Virus record (IMG/VR): IMGVR_UViG_3300022920_000004
Location: 35,001-99,000 of that record
Origin: a virus
Reading direction: 5' to 3' (one strand)
DNA: 64,000 nt
Both the position numbers and the translations under genes were made by a program. The notes under the pieces were generated by a model. It saw only the letters and a list, made by a program, of their open reading frames with translations. It did not search any database and had not been told where the DNA came from. Below are positions 6,174 to 52,174 of the stretch, piece after piece (within the stretch, counting starts at the first letter, position 1; each line of letters opens with the position of its first letter).

Positions 6174-6834
6174 TGTTTTCTTCTATTATTTTATTAATAT
6201 CATTAAAATGTGTACAATTCCAATCAATGTTTTTTTTAACAGCATCATTTGGGTTTGTAAATTCTAAAATATAATTATTATTACTATTTATATATTGTTT
6301 AAATGATTGAGCTTGATTACCCCATAAACAGTATATAATACCTGTATTAACCTCGCTAAGAGACTTTAATAAATATTTAATAAAGTAACTCCAATATATA
6401 GAATGACTTCCTTGTTTTCCTCTAATTGCACTTAAAGATGTGTTAATACATAAAACACCTTGTTTAGACCAATTACTTAAACCATAATCCATAAAATATA
6501 AACCATCTTTAACATTATTAGTTATACATTGCTCTATTTTAGAAAGGGGTTCACTTATGTAAACCCCATGTTTTTCTTCATTAGCAAATGCAATACCAAT
6601 ATCTTTATCATTAGCGTAAGGATTATCTCCTAATATAACAACCTTTAATTTATTATAATCAGTATCTGTAAAAGCTTTAAAAATATCCTTTTTTAGAGGA
6701 AATACTTTTTTACCACTTCTATATTCTTCATTAATAAATTTAATAAGTTTATGCATATATTTACTATCTAATAAATCCTGTCTTAATAAACTATACCAAG
6801 TATTAAATACTTGTTTTTGTACATTAAAATTCAT
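6145..6834 (-). CDS. ung: Uracil-DNA glycosylase (family 1 fold), catalytic motifs degenerate
   Basis: VFP..KDIFKAF, KVVILGDNPY, GIAF, WSKQGVLCIN, LWGNQAQ; canonical GQDPY/HPSP replaced by GDNPY/TNPN. Confidence 0.85.
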   Translation of the reverse strand: MNFNVQKQVFNTWYSLLRQDLLDSKYMHKLIKFINEEYRSGKKVFPLKKDIFKAFTDTDYNKLKVVILGDNPYANDKDIGIAFANEEKHGVYISEPLSKIEQCITNNVKDGLYFMDYGLSNWSKQGVLCINTSLSAIRGKQGSHSIYWSYFIKYLLKSLSEVNTGIIYCLWGNQAQSFKQYINSNNNYILEFTNPNDAVKKNIDWNCTHFNDINKIIEENNGSSEKIIW

Positions 6835-35121: not shown

Positions 35122-35493
35122 TTATGCCTCTGCTGCAATTGGAGCTTGTACTTCAACTTCAGATGTTACATCTAATAATGCTGCAGGTCCTAAATGTTTA
35201 CCTGCCTCAACAACTTCCATAAGAGTTGCCTCTTTAATGGCTGTGAAGTTAAATTGTCTTCCATATTCAGCATCAGGTTCTCCCTCTGTTGCTTGGAATA
35301 AATACGCTTTACCTACCTCGTAACCATTACGCTCTGCAAGTGTTCCTGCAACAATACGTTTGTTAGGTGCTTGACCCGCAACTACGTTTAAGATAACAGG
35401 CATTTTACCGTGTTTATCAGGTGATGCAGGTGTTTCATTTGAACCTGTAAATGATGCTACTGTTGCTAAAAACATTGTGTTTAATCTACTCAT
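35122..35493 (-). CDS. Hypothetical protein (monocistronic, probably highly expressed)
   Basis: 123 aa, Ala/Glu-rich, own terminator and structured leader. Confidence 0.7.
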   Translation of the reverse strand: MSRLNTMFLATVASFTGSNETPASPDKHGKMPVILNVVAGQAPNKRIVAGTLAERNGYEVGKAYLFQATEGEPDAEYGRQFNFTAIKEATLMEVVEAGKHLGPAALLDVTSEVEVQAPIAAEA

Positions 35494-35780
35494 AATATTT
35501 GTAAGTACGATGCTCTTCAGCTTTAGATGGCTTTATTGCCGTTAAGTTATACTGATTTGGTACAGTTCAGTTGCTGTTGTATTATAAATGATAGCTAGGA
35601 ACATAAGTATGCAAAACCTAGTGACTGTTTTTTTATTTATTTTTACCTATCATTATATTAAATGTGCTATATGTTTTATAGCGATGTAATTACGTGATTG
35701 TGTGATAGTGTGCATTGATATACGACTGTGTGATAATGAGTGTAAAATACTAGGCTCACACTCACTATAACACAATAACT

Positions 35781-35960
35781 CTAAGCTTCAACAACTATAT
35801 CACTCAAATCATCTTGATTAGCGTTTTCAATAGCATCTCCTAATAATAACATAGCTTGTGCTATACCAAATGGTGTGTTATCAAAGGTTGATGACATCTC
35901 TCTTGATGAATTAGTATGATTGTTATCATTTACTTTAACTGTAATCGTAATAGTTTTCAT
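35781..35960 (-). CDS. Hypothetical protein (first gene of left arm)
   Basis: MKTITITVKVND... start at 35960 within track ORF 35781..36011. Confidence 0.45.
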   Translation of the reverse strand: MKTITITVKVNDNNHTNSSREMSSTFDNTPFGIAQAMLLLGDAIENANQDDLSDIVVEA

Positions 35961-36229
35961 AATTATATATATTTTTAAGTTAATATTCAAAGAAACACTC
36001 TTAACTACCATTGAGTGTTGACATCATTTAAGTAGAACCAAATACCATTGCTGATATTATCATAGGGCTGATGACATTTGATTAAGCACCTAATATTAGT
36101 AAGTGTAGCGAAGCAATAAAGTTCTATATCATTTTAACAATGATACTATATTTACACTATACTGATTAACACTTAATCAATGAAGAAAACCTAATCCCTC
36201 CAGAACTAAAGAAGAGTGTGACCCTCAAG

Positions 36230-36350
36230 CTTACAAAGGGGGTGGTAACCCAATTTGGAAGTGAAGAGGGGGTGATGTATTGGGTTAGTCCACACATTCA
36301 CTAAATTTTATTTTTTCCCAAAAATTTTTTAAAAATATTTTTTTTTCACA
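36230..36350. other. Divergence region with G-runs and A/T tracts (candidate terminus/pac/origin)
   Basis: AGGGGGTG twice (36237, 36267), TAACCCAAT/ATTGGGTTA inverted repeat, lies at the strand switch. Confidence 0.35.
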
Positions 36351-36393
36351 ATTAAGCCATACATATACACAATTTAAGTCTCTTTAAAAATAA

Positions 36394-36448
36394 TTTGAAA
36401 ATAAGTGCTCTAAAACTTGCATATTAAAAAAATTTATTGTACCTTTAC
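36394..36448 (+). promoter_or_regulatory. Bacteroidota sigma70-type promoter P1
   Basis: TTG(36417)-N20-TACCTTTA; ~55-bp unit repeated at P2 and P3. Confidence 0.7.
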
Positions 36449-36468
36449 AAAATATAAAACAATAGCAA

Positions 36469-36822
36469 ATGAAAATAATAATTGCAGGTTTAAGAAACTT
36501 TACTGATTATAACCTCCTAAAAACAACTATTAATAATTTACTAGATAAATCTAATATAACTATTACAGAAGTTGTAAGTGGTGGAGCTAATGGTGTTGAT
36601 AAACTTGGTGAACAATACGCTAACGAATATAACATACCTATTAGGAGATTTAATGCTGATTGGAATAAATATGGTAATGCTGCAGGACCTATTAGAAATA
36701 AACAAATGGCTGAGTATGCTGATAGATTAATAGCTTTCTGGGATAATAAGTCTAGAGGTACTGGAAGTATGATTAAATTAGCTAAAAACAATAAATTAAA
36801 AGTATATATTAAACAAATATAA
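36469..36822 (+). CDS. YspA-like SLOG family protein
   Basis: IIIAGLRNF.DY, VVSGGANGVD, ADWNKYGNAAGPIRN.QMA, AFWD..SRGT..MI. Confidence 0.85.
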   Translation: MKIIIAGLRNFTDYNLLKTTINNLLDKSNITITEVVSGGANGVDKLGEQYANEYNIPIRRFNADWNKYGNAAGPIRNKQMAEYADRLIAFWDNKSRGTGSMIKLAKNNKLKVYIKQI

Positions 36823-36824
36823 TT

Positions 36825-37217
36825 ATGAAAAATAAATATTACACACCAAGTATTGAAGAATTCTATGTAGGGTTTGAATGTGAGATATATGATGACGATG
36901 ATAAAACTTGGGATTTAGTATATGTTGATACACAACCAGGTCTTTGTAATATTACTGGGTTAGATTTAGATATTAGAGTCAAATACCTAGACAAATCTGA
37001 TATAGAGGATTTGGGGTTTACACATATAGGTGCTTTATGGTTTGAGAGTAAAGAACTTGATTGTAGAATTAGAAAATGGAAGGGTTTAGAGATTGATATC
37101 TACCACGATTGGAGTAGAAATGATGGTGAACACACTGATCATTATAAAGTCTTCAGAGGAACTATTAAAAACAAATCTGAATTAAAAATACTCTTAAAAC
37201 AACTTAATATAAAGTAA
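36825..37217 (+). CDS. Constant/variable family protein, copy 1
   Basis: YYTPSIEEFYVGFE / RVKYLDKSDIEDLGF / IKNKSELK..LKQLNI. Confidence 0.75.
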   Translation: MKNKYYTPSIEEFYVGFECEIYDDDDKTWDLVYVDTQPGLCNITGLDLDIRVKYLDKSDIEDLGFTHIGALWFESKELDCRIRKWKGLEIDIYHDWSRNDGEHTDHYKVFRGTIKNKSELKILLKQLNIK

Positions 37218-37222
37218 TACTA

Positions 37223-37248
37223 AACCCGTCTTAACAGATGGGTTTTTT
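37223..37248 (+). terminator. Intrinsic terminator
   Basis: AACCCGTC/GATGGGTT stem + T-run. Confidence 0.75.
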
Positions 37249-37275
37249 GTTGTAATAAAGTTAATTATAAAATAT

Positions 37276-37329
37276 TTTAAAAATAAATCACTTTTTACTT
37301 GCATATGTCAAATTTTTATTGTACCTTTG
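37276..37329 (+). promoter_or_regulatory. Bacteroidota sigma70-type promoter P2
   Basis: TTG(37299)-N20-TACCTTTG, matching the TAnnTTTG consensus. Confidence 0.8.
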
Positions 37330-37434
37330 CGGTGTTAATAACAAACACAACAAACATACAATGGCTTTCCATCAATTGGGGCTATGACGTTTCTGAAGGG
37401 GAAGGAGTATTTAAAAGAGGAGGGGAAACTCTTT

Positions 37435-37636
37435 AGCACCTAATAATAAAATATATAAATATGAAGGAAGAATTTAAATGGATTAATTATGATGAGTGGA
37501 AGTTTGAAAAGACTAGGGGTAGAAGTATTATATGGAAAGGTTTATCTAAAGAGACTTATCCTAAAGTAAAAGACGTTGTTGAACGTTATATTATAGGATG
37601 TGATCCTTATGATGAAGCACCTAATAAATAAAATAT
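37435..37636 (+). repeat. Direct repeat AGCACCTAATAA(A)TAAAATATA (37435-37455 and 37616-37636)
   Basis: Each copy lies just upstream of a mini-ORF start; core also at 36085 and inverted at 37830. Confidence 0.75.
37461..37631 (+). CDS. 56-aa mini-protein resembling the TerL nuclease active-site strand
   Basis: Manual translation ends ...ERYIIGCDPYDEAPNK; TerL has GRYIAGIDPIDAD. Confidence 0.6.
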   Translation: MKEEFKWINYDEWKFEKTRGRSIIWKGLSKETYPKVKDVVERYIIGCDPYDEAPNK

Positions 37637-37641
37637 AGATT

Positions 37642-37818
37642 ATGATAAAATTAATAAGTAACAAAGATCCTGAATTCTTTTTTAAGTATACAAACTCTTT
37701 AATGGATTTATATAATAAACAAAAACAAATGGATTTTACAGAAATGTTAAATAAATTTCCTATTAAAAATAGTAATGAAATTTATGAATGGAAAATAATG
37801 GGAAGATCTGCTAAATAA
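37642..37818 (+). CDS. 58-aa mini-protein resembling major capsid protein residues ~23-74
   Basis: MLNKFPIKNSNEIYEWKIMG vs MCP SLSLFPEKVLESSDDFVWKLVG. Confidence 0.6.
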   Translation: MIKLISNKDPEFFFKYTNSLMDLYNKQKQMDFTEMLNKFPIKNSNEIYEWKIMGRSAK

Positions 37819-37865
37819 CCCTTACTATTTTAGGTGCTTTATTAAAATAATTTAAAAATAAATAT

Positions 37866-38072
37866 ATGGATTACAACAGAGAAAGAATATTAGATGATTT
37901 AGTAAGAGAACGTGAGATGAAAGAACACTCTGAAAGATTTCAAGGGTACTTCTTACAACATAAATTAGGGTATATTACAGATGATCAATTAAACGATTGG
38001 TTATTAGGTAAGAGAGAATTTGGAGTAGTTGTTAGAGACCCTAAAAATGAAATACCTTTTAAAAAAATTTAA
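37866..38072 (+). CDS. Hypothetical protein
   Basis: 68-aa ORF. Confidence 0.55.
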   Translation: MDYNRERILDDLVREREMKEHSERFQGYFLQHKLGYITDDQLNDWLLGKREFGVVVRDPKNEIPFKKI

Positions 38073-38121
38073 AAATAAATGCTAAATAATTAGGATATGT
38101 CAAAAAAATGTTGTACCTTTG
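38068..38121 (+). promoter_or_regulatory. Bacteroidota sigma70-type promoter P3
   Basis: TAG(38091)-N20-TACCTTTG; shares ATATGTCAAA and upstream TTTAAAAATAAAT with P2. Confidence 0.7.
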
Positions 38122-38146
38122 TACAAGAATTAAATAATTAAAGTAT

Positions 38147-38434
38147 ATGACTAAAATAAACATAGAAGAAACTTATAATAGTATTAAAGAGGATATAAGT
38201 AAAGATTATAAAAAATTTATATTAGAATCTAAAACATTCTTAGATAAATATAGACAAAATAGGAAAGATGATGTATTCCTTGGATATGTTGAAGAACCTG
38301 GATCTGGTTATAGATATATTATTACTATTTATATTAGGGGCTTTAGATCAACTGAATCATTAACTTCTAATATTCATTTAGATGCTAATTATAAACAAGT
38401 AAGTGAGAATGTTAAAAGAAGATCAACTAAATAA
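38147..38434 (+). CDS. Hypothetical protein
   Basis: 95-aa ORF after P3. Confidence 0.55.
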   Translation: MTKINIEETYNSIKEDISKDYKKFILESKTFLDKYRQNRKDDVFLGYVEEPGSGYRYIITIYIRGFRSTESLTSNIHLDANYKQVSENVKRRSTK

Positions 38435-39598: not shown

Positions 39599-39958
39599 AT
39601 GGAGAAATATTATACACCTGAAATTGAAGAGTTTCATGTTGGTTTTGAATATGAATATAATTACGAAGAAGGTATTACTAGGGTTTTAGGTACTAATGAT
39701 ACAGTAGATACTGAAGAGGTTAGAGTTAAATATTTAGATAAAGAAGATATAGAGAGTTTGGGGTTTAAGCTAGATAATGTACATAACGAGGTTAAATTTA
39801 ACTACTTAATGTTTCCTTATAGATTAGAGCATACACCTCATAACAACAGGTTAGATATCTATAAATGGGGTGACGAGTGCGATATGATAGGTTATATTAA
39901 CATCAAAAATAAATCAGAGTTAAAAAGATTATTAAAACAATTAAATATAATTGAATAA
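39599..39958 (+). CDS. Constant/variable family protein, copy 2
   Basis: YYTPEIEEFHVGFE / RVKYLDKEDIESLGF / IKNKSELKRLLKQLNI. Confidence 0.75.
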   Translation: MEKYYTPEIEEFHVGFEYEYNYEEGITRVLGTNDTVDTEEVRVKYLDKEDIESLGFKLDNVHNEVKFNYLMFPYRLEHTPHNNRLDIYKWGDECDMIGYINIKNKSELKRLLKQLNIIE

Positions 39959-40526: not shown

Positions 40527-40893
40527 TATTAATGTTAGTAGAAAGCGTTTATATTATAGGTGGTTAGAAATAACTAAACCTTTTCATAAACTAACTTCTC
40601 AACAACATAATATACTAAGCTTATTATTATACTATTTCTTTGAATATAGAAAGGATATAACTAATGATAAGTTATGTTGGAAGATGGTTTTTGATTACGA
40701 TACCAAGCAACTAATAAAGAAAGAACTTGGTATTAAAGACCCTAATCTACAGAATGTATTAACATCACTTAGAAAGAAAGGTGTAGTTATTGACAATGAG
40801 ATTGTATCTACTTATATACCAAATATAGAAGTTGATAGTAATAATTTTAAGATAATATTTAATTTTAATATTGTAGAAGATGGAAAGCAATAA
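40498..40893 (+). CDS. Winged-helix DNA-binding protein
   Basis: IKKELGIKDPNLQNVLTSLRKKGVVI HTH-wing pattern. Confidence 0.6.
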   Translation: MNMKNGKIANINVSRKRLYYRWLEITKPFHKLTSQQHNILSLLLYYFFEYRKDITNDKLCWKMVFDYDTKQLIKKELGIKDPNLQNVLTSLRKKGVVIDNEIVSTYIPNIEVDSNNFKIIFNFNIVEDGKQ

Positions 40894-41137
40894 AACTGTA
40901 ATAATAAAAAAATCTTTTAAAAGTAAACCTGATAGTTTAAGAGGGATACGTCCAGAAAATGCATTATTTCATATAGGAGACCCTGATATGGGAGAATTAA
41001 ATCATATTGAAGTTGAAGAGTTTAAAAAACTTTATGATGCTTGTAAACCTAAAAGTATTAATAATGTAGGTATAATAATAATAGGGACATCAGGAGAAAC
41101 CGATAATAATTTTAAAAATATTTTTTATGGAAAGTAA
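40880..41137 (+). CDS. 85-aa mini-protein resembling the TerL ATPase Walker-B/coupling segment
   Basis: PDSLRGIR...GIIIIGTSG...FKNIFY vs TerL PEKARGIR...GFMLAGGTGG...SEKLFY. Confidence 0.6.
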   Translation: MESNKTVIIKKSFKSKPDSLRGIRPENALFHIGDPDMGELNHIEVEEFKKLYDACKPKSINNVGIIIIGTSGETDNNFKNIFYGK

Positions 41138-41531
41138 ATACTATATACCAGATATATCTGAATTTTATGTTGGGTTTGAGTGTGAAGTTTATAATAAATA
41201 TTCAGAAGAATGGTATATTTTTTTATTTAACCAAGTTTTTGAAGACACATCTGTAGCGTATAATTTTACGGAAGGAAAATATAGAGTTAAATACTTAGAT
41301 AAATCTGATATAGAAAGTTTAGGGTTTAAACAAATAACTGATGACTGTTTTAATTTACCTTTAAATGATGATGAAGAACTTAGGTTATTGTATGAAGATA
41401 ATATTATAGTTATTTTCTTAGCTGACCAATATAACCGTAGTTTATTTAGGGGTTTAATTAAAAACAAATCTGAATTAAAGAAAGTTTTAAAACAATTAAA
41501 TATTGTAGATGAGGAAGAGAAGAAATCCTAA
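41127..41531 (+). CDS. Constant/variable family protein, copy 3
   Basis: YYIPDISEFYVGFE / RVKYLDKSDIESLGF / IKNKSELKKVLKQLNI. Confidence 0.75.
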   Translation: MESKYYIPDISEFYVGFECEVYNKYSEEWYIFLFNQVFEDTSVAYNFTEGKYRVKYLDKSDIESLGFKQITDDCFNLPLNDDEELRLLYEDNIIVIFLADQYNRSLFRGLIKNKSELKKVLKQLNIVDEEEKKS

Positions 41532-43019: not shown

Positions 43020-43256
43020 ATGGAAGAAAATAATAGAGGAACGGGTAGAACTACTAGGTTAGTTCAATTTTATATAGATAAGTTATTTACAACAACTGAT
43101 GAGGTTATAATTTATGATCATTATGACCATAAAATAGCTCATAAGTTTTTAACTGATGCTATAATTAGACGTATGCATAATGAAATACTTCTTAGAAGAA
43201 AAGATCTTATTTTAAAAAGAATTAATTCAAATATATTACAATTAACAAAAATATAA
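43020..43256 (+). CDS. Small protein with N-terminal P-loop-like motif
   Basis: RGTGRTTRL; start set to ATG 43020. Confidence 0.55.
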   Translation: MEENNRGTGRTTRLVQFYIDKLFTTTDEVIIYDHYDHKIAHKFLTDAIIRRMHNEILLRRKDLILKRINSNILQLTKI

Positions 43257-44722
43257 TGGAAGAAATTATATCAAATAAAGAAGTATTAACTAAATTACTA
43301 GGTGGTATAGATAAACTAGCTAATACAGTTAAAGTAACTTTAGGACCGAGTGGTAATACAGTTATTATAGCTGATGAATATGGTAAACCTTATGCTACTA
43401 AAGATGGTGTATCAGTATCTAACTATATTAATCTTAAAGACCCTGTAGAAAATATAGGTGTTACAATGATTAAAGAAGTAGCTAAGAAGACTGCTGATGA
43501 AGCTGGTGATGGTACTACAACAAGTATTGTATTAGCTCAAGCACTTATAACTAACGGTATTAAGTTTTTAAACGATGGTGGTACTTATAATGATATTAAA
43601 GAAATTTATTCTACATTATTACCAAAAGTATTAAATCTCATTAAAGATGCCTCTACTACAATTACTGCTGATGATATTGTAGATGTAGCTACTGTATCTG
43701 CTAATAATGATCGTGAAATAGGAGAATTAATACAAGTAGCATTTAATCATTCCACAGTAGTTAAAGTTGAAGAAGGTAAAGCTATTAAAGATAGTTTAGA
43801 GTTAATAACAGGTGTAACATATCCTGTAACATACTTTAGTAAGAAGTTTATAACTAATGAAGCTAAAAATACTGCTGAGATTAATGATGCTGCTGTATTA
43901 TTACTTGGTTGTAAGTTAGATAAATTAGATAACTTAAAGAAAGTATTAACTTATTGTAATAAAGAAGAAAAACCACTATTAATAATAACAGAGTTTATTA
44001 GTGATGATGCTTTACATATGCTGGAGACTAATCATATTAATAATGCTTTAAAAATACTGGCAGTTAAAACACCTGGTTACGCTAACTATAGAAATGAGTA
44101 TATAAAAGATTTAAGTGATCTTACTGATAGTATTATTATAGATGATCTTTCTAAAATGGTTGAAGTAGAGCGATTAGGTAGAATTAAAAGTGTAACAGCT
44201 AAATCTAATGAAACGGTATTAATTCCATATGATGATATTGATATTGAGCAAAGAATTACCAACCTCTTTACATTAAGTAAACAACCTAATTTAGGAGGTT
44301 ATGATAAAAAGATTTTATTAGAAAGAATTGATAATCTTAATGGAAAAGTATCTATTATTAAAGTAGGTGCTAAGTCTGAGATTGAAATGAAAGAACGTTA
44401 TGATAGAATTGAAGATGCTGTGTATGCAGTATCATCAGCACTAGAAGAAGGTGTCTTAGAGGGTGGTGGAGTAGCTTTATATAAGATTGCAGACACTTTA
44501 GATATTGACAGTAGTAAATCACTACATTTAATATTACAAGCTCTTAGAGCTCCTAATAAGACTATTAATGAAAATGGTGCTAAAGTTAATCCTTTTATAT
44601 TTGATGATTACACAGTAGTTGATCCTACTAAAGTAACTAGATGTGCTTTAGAAAATGCAGCATCTGTAGCATTAACTATATTAGGAACTAAAGCAGTTGT
44701 ATTAAATGAACATTTATGGTAG
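43256..44722 (+). CDS. groEL: GroEL-like chaperonin
   Basis: TLGPSG, TKDGVSV, AGDGTTT, IKVGA.SEIEMKE..DRIEDA, EEG..GGG, VDPTKVTR.ALENA.S. Confidence 0.95.
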   Translation: MEEIISNKEVLTKLLGGIDKLANTVKVTLGPSGNTVIIADEYGKPYATKDGVSVSNYINLKDPVENIGVTMIKEVAKKTADEAGDGTTTSIVLAQALITNGIKFLNDGGTYNDIKEIYSTLLPKVLNLIKDASTTITADDIVDVATVSANNDREIGELIQVAFNHSTVVKVEEGKAIKDSLELITGVTYPVTYFSKKFITNEAKNTAEINDAAVLLLGCKLDKLDNLKKVLTYCNKEEKPLLIITEFISDDALHMLETNHINNALKILAVKTPGYANYRNEYIKDLSDLTDSIIIDDLSKMVEVERLGRIKSVTAKSNETVLIPYDDIDIEQRITNLFTLSKQPNLGGYDKKILLERIDNLNGKVSIIKVGAKSEIEMKERYDRIEDAVYAVSSALEEGVLEGGGVALYKIADTLDIDSSKSLHLILQALRAPNKTINENGAKVNPFIFDDYTVVDPTKVTRCALENAASVALTILGTKAVVLNEHLW

Positions 44723-46977
44723 ATTTATTAAGTTTAAAGTTAAACAAATATCAAACACCTATAACACAAGAATTAAAAGATTCTTTACATAAGGAAGTAT
44801 GGAATGATTTAGAAGAATATATTTCTACAGTATCATTTATAGAACATATGATATCAGATGAAACTGTTCGTGGTTATGCTAGAGATAAACCTCGTAATAG
44901 TAATGGTCGTATAACTGTAGACTTAACTAAACCTCATATATTAGAAGATATAGATTTTTTTAGAGAGAAAGCTTTATTCTTTGAAAAAAATGGTAAATAT
45001 ACTAATATACCTGTTAATTCAAACCCTAAATCAGAATATGCTGCTTTTTGGAAACAAGAGTTGTATAGATGGGAACATGGTTTAACTAGGGAATCTGATG
45101 GTGAATGGATACCAGGAGAATTATATTTTTACTGGAACTATAGTCCTATATGGTTAGTTAAAGAAGATAAAACTAATAGTAGTGATAATAAAAAGAGTAA
45201 AGGTAAGCGGGTTAGAGAATTTCCTAAACCTTGGTCTGGAGACTATTTATTTCATCATTATATAGAGCAAGCTAAAACTAATGGTAAACATGGTAAACTA
45301 TTAAAATGTAGGGGAATTGGGTTTAGTTTTAAATGTGCTTCTTGGAGCCCAAGAAATATGTATATATACCCAGGTTCAGGTAATCCTAACTTTCATTTAG
45401 CTTCAGAGAAATCCTTTTTGCAAGGAGATAAAGGAATTTTTGGTAAAGTAATGGATTGTTTAGATTGGATAGCTGATAATACACCTTTTGCTAAACTTAG
45501 ACTTACAGATAGTAAGAAAGGGATGGAAATTCAGTTAGGTTATTTAGATGATTATGGTGTACGTAGAGGATTATTATCATCTGTATTTGGTATATCATTA
45601 AAAGATAATCCTGAAAAAGCAAGGGGTATTCGTGGACCTTTAATTCATTATGAAGAAGACGGTTTATTTCCTAACTTAGAAACAGCTTGGAACGTAAATA
45701 GAAAGGCTGTTGAGGATGGAGATGTATCATTTGGATTTATGCTTGCTGGTGGAACTGGAGGAACTGAAGGGGCTTCATTTGAAGGATCTGAAAAGTTATT
45801 CTATAAAGCTGATGCATATAATATATATTCCATACCTAATGCGTTTGATAAGAATGTTAAAGGTGTTACAAACTGTGGTTACTTTTGGGGTGCTTATATA
45901 AATCGTAATAAATGTTATGATGAATCTGTTGGAGAATCTGATGTTGTAAAAGCGTTAATAGAAATATTACAAGATAGATTTTTAGTAAAATATAATTCAT
46001 CAGATCCAAAAGCTATTACACAAAAGAAAGCTGAAGAATGTATAACACCTCAAGAAGCTGTATTAAGAGTTGATGGTACTATATTCCCTGTAGCTGATTT
46101 GAAGGATTATTTAGAAGATATATTTCCACGCAAAGAATCTTTCTTAGCCGAACATTATGTAGGTGATTTAACATATAAAAATGATGGTGGGGTTAAATGG
46201 ACTCCTAATCCAAGTTTATATCCAATTAGATCATATTCTAATGTACCAGCTAATAAACGAGGTGCTGTAGAGATATTTGAAATGCCTAAAAAGAATGGTA
46301 GGGGAGAAATAGCTAGTGGTAGATATATTGCAGGTATTGACCCTATTGATGCTGATACAGGTAACTCATTATTCTCAATGTTAGTAATGGATACATTTAC
46401 TGATAGAATAGTTGCTGAATATACTGGAAGACCTAGAACTGCTAAAGATGCTTATGAAATAACATTAAAGTTATTAATATTTTATAATGCTCAAGCTAAC
46501 TATGAGAACAACTTAAAAGGTTTATTTAGTTATTTTGACAATAAGAATGCACTTTATTTATTAAGTGATACTCCTCAAATCATTCGTGATATGGAGTTAA
46601 CTAAAGCAACTAATGTATATGGAAATAAAGCAAAAGGAACTAACGCAAACGCTAGATTAAACAGTTGGGCTAGATTATTACAAGTAGATTGGTTATTAGC
46701 CAAAGTAAGTAAAGAAGAAGGAGCTGATGATAAGCGACTAAATATACATAGATTAAGATCTATTGGTTATATTGAAGAGCTAATATATTGGAATCCTGAT
46801 GGTAACTTTGATAGGGTATCTGCAGCAGGTATGTTATTTATACTAAGAGAAGATAGACTAAAACGTACTGTAACAGCTAAAGATAATCAATATAAAAAGG
46901 TTAATACTTTAGCTAATGATCCTTATTTTAATAAGAATTATAAAGGTGGTATGGGTTTAGATAAATTAATAAAGTAA
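44716..46977 (+). CDS. terL: Terminase large subunit
   Basis: YFYWNY, KCRGIGFS, HYEEDG Walker B, GGTGG, GIDPID, NYENN, GNFDRVSA. Confidence 0.93.
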   Translation: MVDLLSLKLNKYQTPITQELKDSLHKEVWNDLEEYISTVSFIEHMISDETVRGYARDKPRNSNGRITVDLTKPHILEDIDFFREKALFFEKNGKYTNIPVNSNPKSEYAAFWKQELYRWEHGLTRESDGEWIPGELYFYWNYSPIWLVKEDKTNSSDNKKSKGKRVREFPKPWSGDYLFHHYIEQAKTNGKHGKLLKCRGIGFSFKCASWSPRNMYIYPGSGNPNFHLASEKSFLQGDKGIFGKVMDCLDWIADNTPFAKLRLTDSKKGMEIQLGYLDDYGVRRGLLSSVFGISLKDNPEKARGIRGPLIHYEEDGLFPNLETAWNVNRKAVEDGDVSFGFMLAGGTGGTEGASFEGSEKLFYKADAYNIYSIPNAFDKNVKGVTNCGYFWGAYINRNKCYDESVGESDVVKALIEILQDRFLVKYNSSDPKAITQKKAEECITPQEAVLRVDGTIFPVADLKDYLEDIFPRKESFLAEHYVGDLTYKNDGGVKWTPNPSLYPIRSYSNVPANKRGAVEIFEMPKKNGRGEIASGRYIAGIDPIDADTGNSLFSMLVMDTFTDRIVAEYTGRPRTAKDAYEITLKLLIFYNAQANYENNLKGLFSYFDNKNALYLLSDTPQIIRDMELTKATNVYGNKAKGTNANARLNSWARLLQVDWLLAKVSKEEGADDKRLNIHRLRSIGYIEELIYWNPDGNFDRVSAAGMLFILREDRLKRTVTAKDNQYKKVNTLANDPYFNKNYKGGMGLDKLIK

Positions 46978-47055: not shown

Positions 47056-49437
47056 ATGGGAACATTTCAGAATGTAAAAACACCGCCTCAACGTCTTAGT
47101 TTTTCTAAGAAGGGAAAAGAGTGGAGAAAAAATAATGTAGATCACGGAGATGTTAATTCTTTATATCATAATGAAGGGGTTAGACAATCTTTAAGAAATA
47201 GAGTAATAAATCTTAATTTATATAATGGTATTATAAATGTCAATGATATGAAAGAAGTAGTTAATCCTTATGGGATTGATGCCGATTTTATACCTAAAGC
47301 AATACCACATCATCCTATTGCAGTACCTAAGATAGACTTATTAGTAGGTGAAGAGATTAAACGTAGATTTGATTGGTCTGTTGTAGTAACTAATCCTAAT
47401 GCCATAACAGCTAAAGAAAATGATAGAAAGAATGTTTTAACTCAAAAGATTACGCAATTTATACAAGGTAATTACTCAGAACAAGAACTTGAAATGAAAA
47501 TGAAAGATCTTGAGAAGTATATGAAGTATGAGTGGCAAGATGTTAGAGAAAAGATGGCTAATCAAATTCTTAAACATTATTGGGAAGAACAACAGTTTGC
47601 TTATAAATTTAATAATGGATTTAAAGATGCTATGATAATGGCAGAAGAAATCTATCAAGTAGATATAGTTGCTGATGAACCTGTGCTTGAAAAGCTTAAC
47701 CCATTAAAGGTAAGGGCTGTGCGTAATGGTAACTCTAATAGAATTGAAGACTCTAGTATAATTGTTATAGAAGATCATTGGTCTCCTGCTAAAATAGTGG
47801 ATACTTTTTATGGTGAAATAAAGCCTAAAGAGATTGATGTTATTATGGAATATGGAGGTAGATCTTCTAAAGGAGGTTATAGTGATGACGATAATAACCA
47901 TGTTCTATTACGTGATTCAGTTGAAGACTTTTTAGGGATTGCTGAAATTAATGGTCATAACTTTAGTAGAGATTATACAGATCCTGATGGTAATATTAGA
48001 GTATTAAGAGTTTACTGGAGAAGTTATAAAAAAATTAAGAAAGTTAAGTTCTATGATGAGGAAGGTGAAACTCAGTTTAAATTTATGTCTGAGGAATATA
48101 TTCCTAACAAAGATTTAGGCGAAGAAGTTACTGATTTATGGGTTAATGAAATATGGGAAGGTACTAAAATAGGTAAGGATATTTATATTCAAATGAGACC
48201 TAAAGAAGTTCAATTTAACAGATTGAATAATAAATCTCAATGTCATGCTGGAATTATTGGACAAGTGTATAACACTAACCAAGGTAAAGGTATTTCATTA
48301 ATGGATAGATGTAAAAACTATCAATATTTATATGATGCTATATGGGATAGATTAAACAAAGCTATTGCTACTAACTATGGTAAGATATTTGAATTAGATA
48401 TATCTAAAATACCTGATAACTGGGAAGTTGAAAAATGGATGCACTTTGCTATTGTTAATAAGATAGCTATTGTAGATAGTTTTAAAGAAGGAAATCATGG
48501 TGCTTCTACAGGTAAATTAGCTGGATCGTTTAATACTCAAGGTGGTAGATCTATTGACATGGAATCTGGTAATTATATTCAACAACAAATCCAACTCTTA
48601 GAGTTTATTAAGATGGAGATGGGTGAAATTGTAGGTGTATCACAACAACGTCAAGGACAAATATCTAATAGAGAAACTGTAGGTGGTGTTGAAAGAGCTG
48701 TTAATCAATCAAGTCATATTACTGAACATTGGTTTATGCAACATGAGAATGTTAAGTTAAGAGTATTAACTGCATTTTTAGAAACTGCTAAAATAGCCCT
48801 TAAAGGTAAAAATCCTAAAGTACAGTATATATTAGATGATCAAACTATACAAACTTTAAATGTTGATGGTGATGTATTCTGTGAAGCTGATTATGGTGTT
48901 GTAGCAACTAACTCTAGTAAGACACAAGAAATGGAGCAAACTATAAAAGGTTATGCACAATCTTTCTTACAGAATGGTGGTAATTTATCTACTATAATGG
49001 ATATTTATTTTAGCCCTTCATTAGCTGATATGAGACGTAAGATTGAAATTGCTGAAGATGATTTACATCAAAAGAATTCAGAAGCTTCTCAACAACAAGC
49101 TAAACTTGCTGAACAACAACAAGCTCAAGAATTACAACTTGAACAAGCTAAAATGAAACTTGAAGAAACTATTAATATTAGAGATAATGAAACTAAGTTA
49201 CAAATAGCTCAAATGTCACAAGATGGTTTAGATACGGATTTAAATAATGATGGTGATGGTTTAGATGCTGAAAAACTTAATTTAGAAGAAAGAAAGTTTC
49301 AAAATGATAGAACTAATTCAAGTAATGACCTAATGGTTAAAATAAAATCTTTACATAACGATATGGAGAAACACAGTGATAATGTAAAGTTAAAGGAAAA
49401 ACAACTTAAAAAGGCAGCTAATAAGCCGTCTAAATAA
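47056..49437 (+). CDS. Portal protein
   Basis: 793 aa after TerL; PKIDLLVGEE, W.NE.WEGTKIG, QRQGQI...ETVGGVERAV.QS typical of crAss-like portals. Confidence 0.9.
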   Translation: MGTFQNVKTPPQRLSFSKKGKEWRKNNVDHGDVNSLYHNEGVRQSLRNRVINLNLYNGIINVNDMKEVVNPYGIDADFIPKAIPHHPIAVPKIDLLVGEEIKRRFDWSVVVTNPNAITAKENDRKNVLTQKITQFIQGNYSEQELEMKMKDLEKYMKYEWQDVREKMANQILKHYWEEQQFAYKFNNGFKDAMIMAEEIYQVDIVADEPVLEKLNPLKVRAVRNGNSNRIEDSSIIVIEDHWSPAKIVDTFYGEIKPKEIDVIMEYGGRSSKGGYSDDDNNHVLLRDSVEDFLGIAEINGHNFSRDYTDPDGNIRVLRVYWRSYKKIKKVKFYDEEGETQFKFMSEEYIPNKDLGEEVTDLWVNEIWEGTKIGKDIYIQMRPKEVQFNRLNNKSQCHAGIIGQVYNTNQGKGISLMDRCKNYQYLYDAIWDRLNKAIATNYGKIFELDISKIPDNWEVEKWMHFAIVNKIAIVDSFKEGNHGASTGKLAGSFNTQGGRSIDMESGNYIQQQIQLLEFIKMEMGEIVGVSQQRQGQISNRETVGGVERAVNQSSHITEHWFMQHENVKLRVLTAFLETAKIALKGKNPKVQYILDDQTIQTLNVDGDVFCEADYGVVATNSSKTQEMEQTIKGYAQSFLQNGGNLSTIMDIYFSPSLADMRRKIEIAEDDLHQKNSEASQQQAKLAEQQQAQELQLEQAKMKLEETINIRDNETKLQIAQMSQDGLDTDLNNDGDGLDAEKLNLEERKFQNDRTNSSNDLMVKIKSLHNDMEKHSDNVKLKEKQLKKAANKPSK

Positions 49438-50668: not shown

Positions 50669-52174
50669 ATGAGTGTAGGTAAATTCGTTGTCACAAAGGG
50701 TAAACACTGGTCGGGGCTAACATTAAAAAACCATATTGGGGCTATTTTTGGAAGTAGACCGCAGTTGGCATCAAAGGTAACTACTGTATTACTTCAATCC
50801 GCAGGAATGAAAAATTTAGATACTTCGTTATCTTTATTTCCTGAGAAAGTATTAGAATCAAGCGATGATTTCGTTTGGAAGTTAGTTGGAAGTGATGAAA
50901 GAAATATTCCATTAACTGAAGCACGTTATAACGGAGCTGTTGTTACTGATGGTGACACAGGAATTGGAGCAGGTAGAACAACATTTGAACTAGTATTCGC
51001 TGAAAAGTGGTTTACTAAAGTTCATGTAATTTCTGGTATTCATCCAGATATCTATCAAATTAGAATTTTAGAAGAGCCTGTTGCAGAAGCTCCTAATAGA
51101 TATGTGTACACATGTGAAGCATGGGGTGGACAAGAATCATTAGCGGGTATTCCTGGTTCTGAATTAGTAGCAAACAATAGATTCTCTATTGAATCTGCTT
51201 ATGTTGAAGACGAACTTTCTATTGAAGGTGCTGGAATTCAATTTACATCTCCTTACTTAATGAGAAATAGTGTTTCTAACTTACGTTTTGAACATAAAGT
51301 TTCTGGAGCAATGATTGATTGTAAAGTTGAACCAGTTTATTTTGCAGGTATTGAGACAAGAGATCCTAATAGCGGTAAAGTACATTCATCTAATACATGG
51401 ATGCAAGAAGTACACTGGCAGTTTGAAAAAGCATTATCTAGAATTAAATCTAGAACATTGATGTTTGGTAAAACAAATCGTGCTGAAAATGGTGGATTCT
51501 TAAACAAAGGAAAATCAAATATTGAAATTAAAGCAGGTTCTGGAATTAGAGAGCAAATTGAAGTAAGTAATACTACTTATTACAATAGATTCTCAATTAG
51601 ATTACTAGAAGATATGCTTTATGAGTTATCTGAAGGTAAACTAGATTTCTCAGAACGTAAATTTATGTTGCGTACAGGAGAAAGAGGTGCAGCACAATTT
51701 CACAGAGCTGTAACTGCTGAAGCATCAGGATGGATTAACTTAACACAAAATAACCCTGCTGTAACGCAAAAGGTTAGTTCTAAGTTTCATTCAAATGCAT
51801 TTAAAACTGGATTCCAATTCACTGAATGGACAGCACCTAATAATGTAAGTGTATCTATCGAGGTTGATCCTATGTATGATGACAAAGTAAGAAATAAGTT
51901 ATTGCATCCAGATGGAGGTGTAGCTGAATCTTACAGATATGATATTTTATATATCGGATCTAGCGATGAACCAAATATCCAAAAGATTAAAGTTCGTGGT
52001 GAAGATGAATTAAGAGGTTATAAAGCTGGTATTAGAGATCCGTTTACGGGTCGTAGAGGTGGAGTTATGAATCATATGGAAGATTCTGCTGTTATTACAG
52101 CAATGTGCATGACTGGAGCGATGGTAAAAGATCCTTCTAGAACTGCAACATTAATCCCTTCAATATTAGGATAG
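50669..52174 (+). CDS. Major capsid protein
   Basis: 501 aa, GLT..NH N-terminus, G.GIREQI, TGERG, followed by strong terminator; crAss-like synteny. Confidence 0.9.
   Translation: MSVGKFVVTKGKHWSGLTLKNHIGAIFGSRPQLASKVTTVLLQSAGMKNLDTSLSLFPEKVLESSDDFVWKLVGSDERNIPLTEARYNGAVVTDGDTGIGAGRTTFELVFAEKWFTKVHVISGIHPDIYQIRILEEPVAEAPNRYVYTCEAWGGQESLAGIPGSELVANNRFSIESAYVEDELSIEGAGIQFTSPYLMRNSVSNLRFEHKVSGAMIDCKVEPVYFAGIETRDPNSGKVHSSNTWMQEVHWQFEKALSRIKSRTLMFGKTNRAENGGFLNKGKSNIEIKAGSGIREQIEVSNTTYYNRFSIRLLEDMLYELSEGKLDFSERKFMLRTGERGAAQFHRAVTAEASGWINLTQNNPAVTQKVSSKFHSNAFKTGFQFTEWTAPNNVSVSIEVDPMYDDKVRNKLLHPDGGVAESYRYDILYIGSSDEPNIQKIKVRGEDELRGYKAGIRDPFTGRRGGVMNHMEDSAVITAMCMTGAMVKDPSRTATLIPSILG

Follow-up and report, generated by a model that had tools for sequence, protein, structure and literature searches.

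A short open reading frame in a crAss-like phage raises the question of whether a phage can carry, apart from its major capsid protein (MCP) gene, a free-standing copy of one piece of that protein. The original prediction, made from the sequence alone, placed a 58-aa ORF at 37642-37818 and held that it resembles the N-terminal region of the MCP. An open frame of 58 codons plus a stop, running from ATG to TAA on the + strand (37642..37818), was present at this position; the ORF is called ORF58 here, and its protein is P0002.

The phage and its capsid gene

The window analysed is a 64-kb stretch of DNA (bases 35001-99000) from an IMG/VR virus record that is 99 kb long and was judged 98% complete. 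The phage is marine, crAss-like, and low in G+C, its nearest named relative is Cellulophaga phage phi14:2 (MCP identity of 67%), and parts of the ORF58 locus are contained in seawater metagenomes. The MCP gene (501 aa; 50669..52174, +) was identified by Pfam Crass_capsid (E 1.4e-176), by the PHROG major head protein, and by a match of 462 bits to crAss001 gp32 (PDB 7QOF). The terminase and portal genes are located at 44716-46977 and 47056-49437, respectively. A GroEL-like chaperonin of 488 aa (43256-44722, +; phrog_5725, E 3e-108) is encoded directly upstream of the terminase gene and overlaps it. The head of the rightward gene block is a gene for a 117-aa SLOG/YspA-type protein (36469-36822, +; Pfam YAcAr, E 3.4e-16; phrog_289). 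No tRNAs were found in the 64-kb window.

ORF58 is an optional cassette

The upstream gene is ended by a terminator-like hairpin (37222..37245, +), and the ORF58 unit therefore starts afresh. A promoter-like 24-mer, TGTCAAA-N6-TTGTACCTTTG, which contains TAnnTTTG, is located upstream of ORF56, ORF58, and ORF68 (37306..37329, +), and a second copy is located at 38098-38121. These two are all the copies in the window, against 0.1 expected, and they bracket the unit of three small ORFs; we infer that the 24-mer may act as a promoter. A leader, GCACCTAATAA(A)TAAAATATA, precedes both ORF56 and ORF58, and the sole occurrence of this leader 22-mer in IMG/VR was on one sibling contig. The 8-mer GCACCTAA lies just before ORF58 (37617..37624, +), with a copy before ORF56 (37436-37443) and an inverted copy after ORF58 (37830-37837, −); together with seven further sites, it occurs 10 times in the window against 1 expected.

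The sibling phage contig L083, whose terminase is 92% identical, keeps the flanks at 86-99% identity (86-96% for the leader and the downstream intergenic stretch) and lacks ORF58. The variable slot is bounded by a conserved intergenic stretch (37813..37863, +) that is 96% identical in L083. In this sibling, the ORF56/ORF58 slot is occupied by a 205-aa ORF (L083:4445-5062) with a sub-threshold match to C5 DNA methylase (E 0.003), and the ORF68 slot is occupied by an endonuclease VII gene (L083:5152-5559; E 4.7e-26). Contigs from four other seawater runs also covered the flanks. Among the joints in seawater contigs, 37434>37616 removes ORF56 (two runs), 37632>37821 removes ORF58, and 37650>37812 replaces most of ORF58. 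The L083 slot and these joints therefore indicate that ORF58 is an optional cassette and that the accessory region around it is hypervariable; its upstream neighbor ORF56 (37461..37631, +) is a separate optional cassette. The joints of the other samples coincide with the GCACCTAA repeats, suggesting that these repeats are the recombination boundaries of the cassettes. The Rfam search returned nothing real in 35300-38300.

Several further features of the region were recorded. In ORF56, the motif KWINYDEWKFEK, which is common to L071:672-875, resembles MCP 241-257 (hhalign 22.0, P 0.007), and the motif RYIIGCDPYD, which is common to L002:3562-3738, matches TerL 536-545 (BLASTP E 0.016); neither is significant alone. 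Three paralogs of a 119-134 aa family are encoded at 36825-37217, 39599-39958, and 41127-41531 (all +), with the constant blocks YY.P.I.EF.VGFE, VKYLDK.DIE.LGF, and IKNKSELK..LKQLNI. At least 131 relatives were found in IMG/VR, most of them on crAss-like contigs of about 90-105 kb, and the family matches nothing in Pfam or PHROGs. For the 85-aa ORF at 40880-41137 (+), no similarity was found to the phage's own TerL by BLASTP, to Pfam at E 10, or to PHROGs at E 0.01.

ORF58 belongs to a very rare family

An exhaustive phmmer search of 1.84 billion representatives returned P0003 (54 aa; E 8.8e-14) as the sole true relative of ORF58. P0008 (58 aa), which has the same N-terminus as ORF58, is the full-length member of the P0003 cluster; the encoding contigs are 611 bp long for P0003 and 1,791 bp long for P0008. 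The other phmmer matches, P0004-P0007, are long repeat proteins and were dismissed as relatives. With ORF58, P0003, P0008, or their alignment as queries, no further relatives were found by tblastn in 50,697 phage records or by word-based and pattern scans of IMG/VR, JGI metagenomes, and GTDB genomes. A word-based search of 5.8 billion proteins also returned none, and the ESM Atlas held no usable neighbor of ORF58. The family thus has three known sequences in two lineages, and ORF58 has a single other lineage among about 15 billion proteins.

ORF58 and P0008 are equal in length and 57% identical, with 28 invariant columns and conservative replacements. This conservation in two lineages fits a translated, selected, and very rare protein and argues that ORF58 is a genuine gene. 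The location of ORF58 in a recombination-prone, repeat-bounded cassette region is also what would be expected of a nonfunctional, decaying remnant left when recombination duplicated the beginning of an MCP gene. However, ORF58 has its own start codon behind the leader that it has in common with ORF56, and in the second lineage the frame of 58 codons is still intact at this low identity, so that decay is an extremely unlikely explanation.

Comparison of ORF58 with the MCP of the same phage

The original prediction aligned ORF58 with residues 23-74 of the phage's own MCP. The peptide strings that it quoted are exact, the MCP string begins at residue 23, and the alignment contains 14 identities in 55 columns. 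An unconstrained Smith-Waterman comparison of ORF58 with this MCP also chose the claimed region, with a score of 40 that was equalled by 43 of 2000 shuffles (whole MCP; p about 0.02). The 23-74 alignment was not reported by BLASTP of ORF58 against its own MCP, and among the proteins of its genome, compared as single sequences, the MCP ranked 5th against ORF58. The top BLASTP alignment, of ORF58 5-34 with MCP 297-329, was without profile support and was rejected.

These results show that the match of ORF58 to its own MCP alone is not significant relative to chance. They are consistent with a chance resemblance, in which ORF58 would be an orphan accessory protein, such as a host-takeover or anti-defense factor, with a small number of aromatic, proline, and glycine residues that fall by accident on the most conserved columns of the MCP N-arm; once the many ORF-by-protein pairs of the window are counted, the own-MCP match is at chance level. 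On the full evidence, which includes the profile comparisons below, we consider chance rather unlikely, although it deserves serious weight.

Comparison of ORF58 with diverse crAss-type MCPs

ORF58 was further compared with profiles of the MCP family. The first MCP profile consisted of 120 close relatives and a few gut crAss MCPs. In hhalign, it matched only residues 31-57 of ORF58 (P 1.1e-3 to 1.2e-3; probability 19-20%), equally high scores were obtained for about 1.3% of 446 real small ORFs of related phages, and support for residues 1-29 was absent with this less diverse profile. These first-round results alone read as chance, and the reading was revised after the tests with a diverse profile, HMMER, and BLASTP. 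In the second profile, 15 MCPs from diverse marine crAss-like genomes were added, and the ORF58 family then scored 33.1 (P 5.7e-5; probability 66%). When the family alignment was compared with an alignment of 28 diverse crAss-type MCPs (A2 and A3, respectively), the score was 34.5 (P 3.6e-5; probability 71.4%), with ORF58 30-57 placed on MCP 48-77. The family profile comprises 3 sequences with a Neff of 1.3, and each lineage matched the same MCP region singly (hhalign scores of 28.9 and 28.1).

None of the 736 column shuffles reached the observed score (maximum 24.1 vs 33.1). In the null of real ORFs for the second profile, only 2 of 446 reached 28, both on another MCP segment, and these two may be true MCP relatives themselves. 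Several unrelated small ORFs scored 25-31 against the MCP, so that the real-ORF null is heavy-tailed, and this tail counts in favor of chance, as does the length of the alignment core, which is only 27-28 columns.

The HMMER and BLASTP results pointed to the same MCP segment. When 2,612 small phage ORFs were searched, with filters off, using an HMM built from MCP residues 15-85, ORF58, P0003, and P0008 ranked first (E-values for the family of 1e-4, 1.6e-3, and 1.8e-3), and the next ORF had an E-value of 0.28; the alignment at E 1e-4 spans ORF58 residues 17-57. BLASTP of ORF58 against P0021, a sister-clade MCP that is 79% identical to the MCP of the window, gave 19 identities in 55 over ORF58 residues 2-54 (E 2e-5), which reproduced the claimed whole-peptide alignment, and BLASTP of P0008 against the MCP of gut phage cr108_1 gave E 9e-5; as these partners are the best of 48 MCPs, the E-values of both pairs should be corrected by as much as about 50-fold. 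The best Smith-Waterman score of ORF58 against all MCPs was 62, whereas shuffles had a mean of 33.7 (sd 4.3) and none of 300 scored as high. Of the 59 small ORFs in the genome of this phage, ORF58 also scored highest. Its identity to MCPs is about 25-35%, and its similarity to own-clade MCPs is no higher than that to distant gut crAss MCPs.

Curated models remained silent. Pfam Crass_capsid (PF23898; cut-off of 27 bits) did not match P0002 or P0008 even at E 10, a six-frame family search of the genome for Crass_capsid found the MCP alone, a PDB-wide hmmsearch that included crAss001 gp32 did not pick up ORF58, and PHROGs contained no match. The silence of the Pfam and PDB searches again favors chance. 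On the other side, a single MCP segment, in the same order, was reached by hhalign, HMMER, and BLASTP and from both independent lineages, the score climbs with the diversity of the MCPs, the shuffles stay below it, and the secondary structure is colinear (see below).

Taken together, the sequence comparisons suggest an above-chance similarity of ORF58 to the MCP family, of moderate strength. A non-significant HMM-HMM score against MCP profiles had been named in advance as evidence against the resemblance, and no such score was seen: the hhalign P was about 4e-5 at a probability of 66-71%, which is short of proof. The predicted N-terminal resemblance therefore stood, at moderate strength, against diverse MCP profiles and other MCPs by hhalign, HMMER, and BLASTP, but did not stand against the own MCP alone. 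Both the profile-profile comparison and the colinear pairwise alignment favor, at moderate strength, placing the family among derivatives of the MCP N-arm; the own MCP does not give this result in the pairwise comparison.

Predicted structure of ORF58 and the MCP N-arm

By BLASTP to P0021 and the order of secondary structure, residues 2-54 of ORF58 (37645..37803, +) are colinear with MCP 23-74, a segment that takes in the N-arm helices and the first E-loop strand. The best-supported MCP-like core by hhalign and HMMER is formed by residues 30-57 (37729..37812, +), with the pattern L-N-K-F-P ... Y-E-W-x-I-x-G. In the MCP gene, the ORF58-like segment by alignments and hhalign encodes residues 23-77 (50735..50899, +) and ends just before the I-domain insertion of the E-loop. 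In crAss001 gp32, the I-domain comprises residues 79-180 of the E-loop (PMC10172136), and ORF58 would therefore correspond to the N-arm helices and the first E-loop strand, stopping where the I-domain starts.

The ORF58 model, of low confidence (pLDDT 60.5), contains a strand at 3-6, helices at 10-27 and 32-38, and a strand at 47-50. The MCP model (pLDDT 78) contains helices at 31-44 and 50-54 and strands at 60-62 and 68-72. In these predicted models, the order of secondary structure agrees at the aligned positions and is colinear. A search by Foldseek (pdb) and a wide VIA-align search with the same low-confidence ORF58 model returned nothing above Z 3.4; the rows were weak and unrelated and did not include the crAss001 capsid protein. 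The ORF58 model shows two helices and short strands; neither the P domain nor the A domain of the HK97 fold is present, nor is the E-loop I-domain. Lacking the first two, ORF58 is unable to form a shell.

The structural order also bears on whether the shared pattern is a convergent short motif, L-x-K-F-P ... Y-E-W-x-I-x-G, that arose independently through binding of the partner of the MCP N-arm. The limitation of the strongest signal to the core of 27-28 columns would be consistent with such convergence, and so would a similarity that is no higher to own-clade MCPs than to those of distant gut phages. However, the BLASTP and HMMER alignments run through the preceding helix and the order of secondary structure matches, which argues for more than a linear motif and makes convergence a very improbable origin. 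Convergence and decay jointly carry only a small probability.

Probable origin and proposed action of ORF58

We consider it probable, at roughly 0.6, that ORF58 is a true derivative of the 5′ part of a crAss-type MCP gene, covering about MCP residues 23-77. This reading is based on the agreement of hhalign, HMMER, and BLASTP, the agreement of the two lineages, the growth of the score with MCP diversity, and the colinearity of sequence and secondary structure. Caution is called for because the match is short, the family has three sequences, the own MCP fails, the curated models are silent, the hhalign probability is about 70% and not above 95%, and the real-ORF null has a heavy tail.

If ORF58 derives from the MCP, its best-guess role is molecular mimicry, in which the protein would bind whatever normally reads the N-arm segment of the MCP. 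The partner could be a host sensor of capsid protein, for which ORF58 would serve as a decoy, or ORF58 could interfere with the capsid assembly of a competing or co-infecting phage. Since ORF58 is dispensable, a host sensor or rival assembly would be a likelier partner than the phage's own essential assembly pathway. An essential role in assembly is unlikely because close relatives do without ORF58. The original prediction had suggested a capsid-epitope decoy or an assembly modulator; among the present results, the optional nature of the gene alone bears on these roles, and it speaks against an essential part in assembly.

Other candidate MCP-fragment ORFs in related phages

Other small ORFs of related phages also matched parts of the MCP. 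A family of 10 members (46-77 aa; P0128-P0137), encoded at L014:5536-5757 and also in L015 and L039, matches MCP 297-355, which is the spine-helix region with the TGxRG..F motif. In hhalign, this family gave probabilities of 92-93.5% (P 2e-7 to 7e-7) and a score of 47.4, against a shuffle maximum of 20.7. The gene that follows directly downstream belongs to the 130-aa family, and this order is also seen in a 213-kb phage. A 121-aa ORF at L004:5357-5722 (= G001:7117-7482) matches positions 96-135 of Pfam Crass_capsid, in the I-domain (E 2.1e-5), and a full-length MCP HMM (E 1.9e-5), and is a candidate for another capsid-fragment mini-gene.

Weaker cases were found at 6290-6499 and 3076-3267 of L025, which is the cultured phage phi14:2 and contributes two ORFs, and at L016:5628-5774 and L040:2911-3330. 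Their scores (hhalign P 6e-5 to 2e-3; HMMER E 1.5e-3 to 8e-3) were best against MCP 304-356 or other segments; these ORFs are individually weak, yet they are grouped on the same MCP regions. Together, these cases suggest that the design of an MCP-fragment ORF is recurrent rather than a one-off. A broader proposal is that marine crAss-like phages hold optional cassette mini-genes, each a diverged copy of a different MCP segment (the N-arm, the I-domain piece of L004, the spine-helix piece of L014, and possibly terminase pieces next door). Such genes would act as mimics, either as decoys that occupy the immune sensors with which hosts recognize conserved virion proteins, or by blocking the head assembly of rivals in a dominant-negative manner. 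We regard this general scheme as speculative and quite unlikely in its full form.

Relation to known systems

Bacterial defenses read conserved virion proteins, including the capsid, portal, and terminase. Small proteins that act on HK97-type assembly are represented by SaPI1 CpmB and related capsid-size redirecting proteins, which are helical and occupy a capsid-protein site; they are satellite-encoded rather than encoded by the phage itself and are not known to derive from the capsid protein. The PDB-wide hmmsearch showed no sequence relation between SaPI1 CpmB and ORF58.

A further comparison is with the N-arm of crAss-type MCPs themselves (crAss001 gp32, 7QOF, PF23898). Residues of about 23-77 are colinear with ORF58, with conserved L, F/Y-P, Y, W, I/V, and G and the order helix, short helix, and strand. 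Unlike these MCPs, ORF58 has about 55 of about 500 residues, lacks the I-, P-, and A-domains and the HK97 fold, and has its gene in an optional cassette well away from the structural module; it is also far more diverged from MCPs (at the identity given above) than MCPs are among themselves.

A capsid-protein stretch that is read by a host defense is known from T4, in which the Gol region of gp23 is read by the Lit protease system of e14 (PMC3014915). Gol is a short and highly conserved stretch in the first quarter of the capsid protein and is active as a peptide, and a Gol-type peptide binds EF-Tu and activates a Lit-type protease (PMC3014915). The likeness to the proposal for ORF58 is that a short stretch of capsid protein has an activity of its own, and Gol shows that host defenses can read such a stretch. 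In contrast to this proposal, Gol is part of gp23 and not a separate gene, and it triggers a defense rather than blocking it; T4 gp23 and crAss MCPs belong to different families, and no Lit-like partner is known for ORF58. The small terminase-ATPase-like phage proteins T4 vs.8 and Ksap1/Ksap2 activate Avs2 (PMC13601566). They resemble the proposal for ORF58 in being taxon-restricted small phage proteins that look like part of a conserved protein of virion assembly and interact with the host sensor for it, whereas they differ in copying the terminase, in keeping a folded ATPase-like core, and in being reported as activators, not decoys.

Significance for crAss-like phages

If the similarity is merely due to chance, the locus is one more orphan gene in a hypervariable cassette. 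ORF58 offers a candidate that is short and can be cloned, from the marine phages resembling phi14:2, for which a model host is in culture. A free-standing capsid-fragment mini-gene would be a poorly known kind of phage gene, and we know of no description of a free-standing copy of a capsid segment in Crassvirales. If the proposed origin and action are true, a free-standing copy of a sensed segment would offer the phage a simple way to counter such defenses or to attack its rivals.
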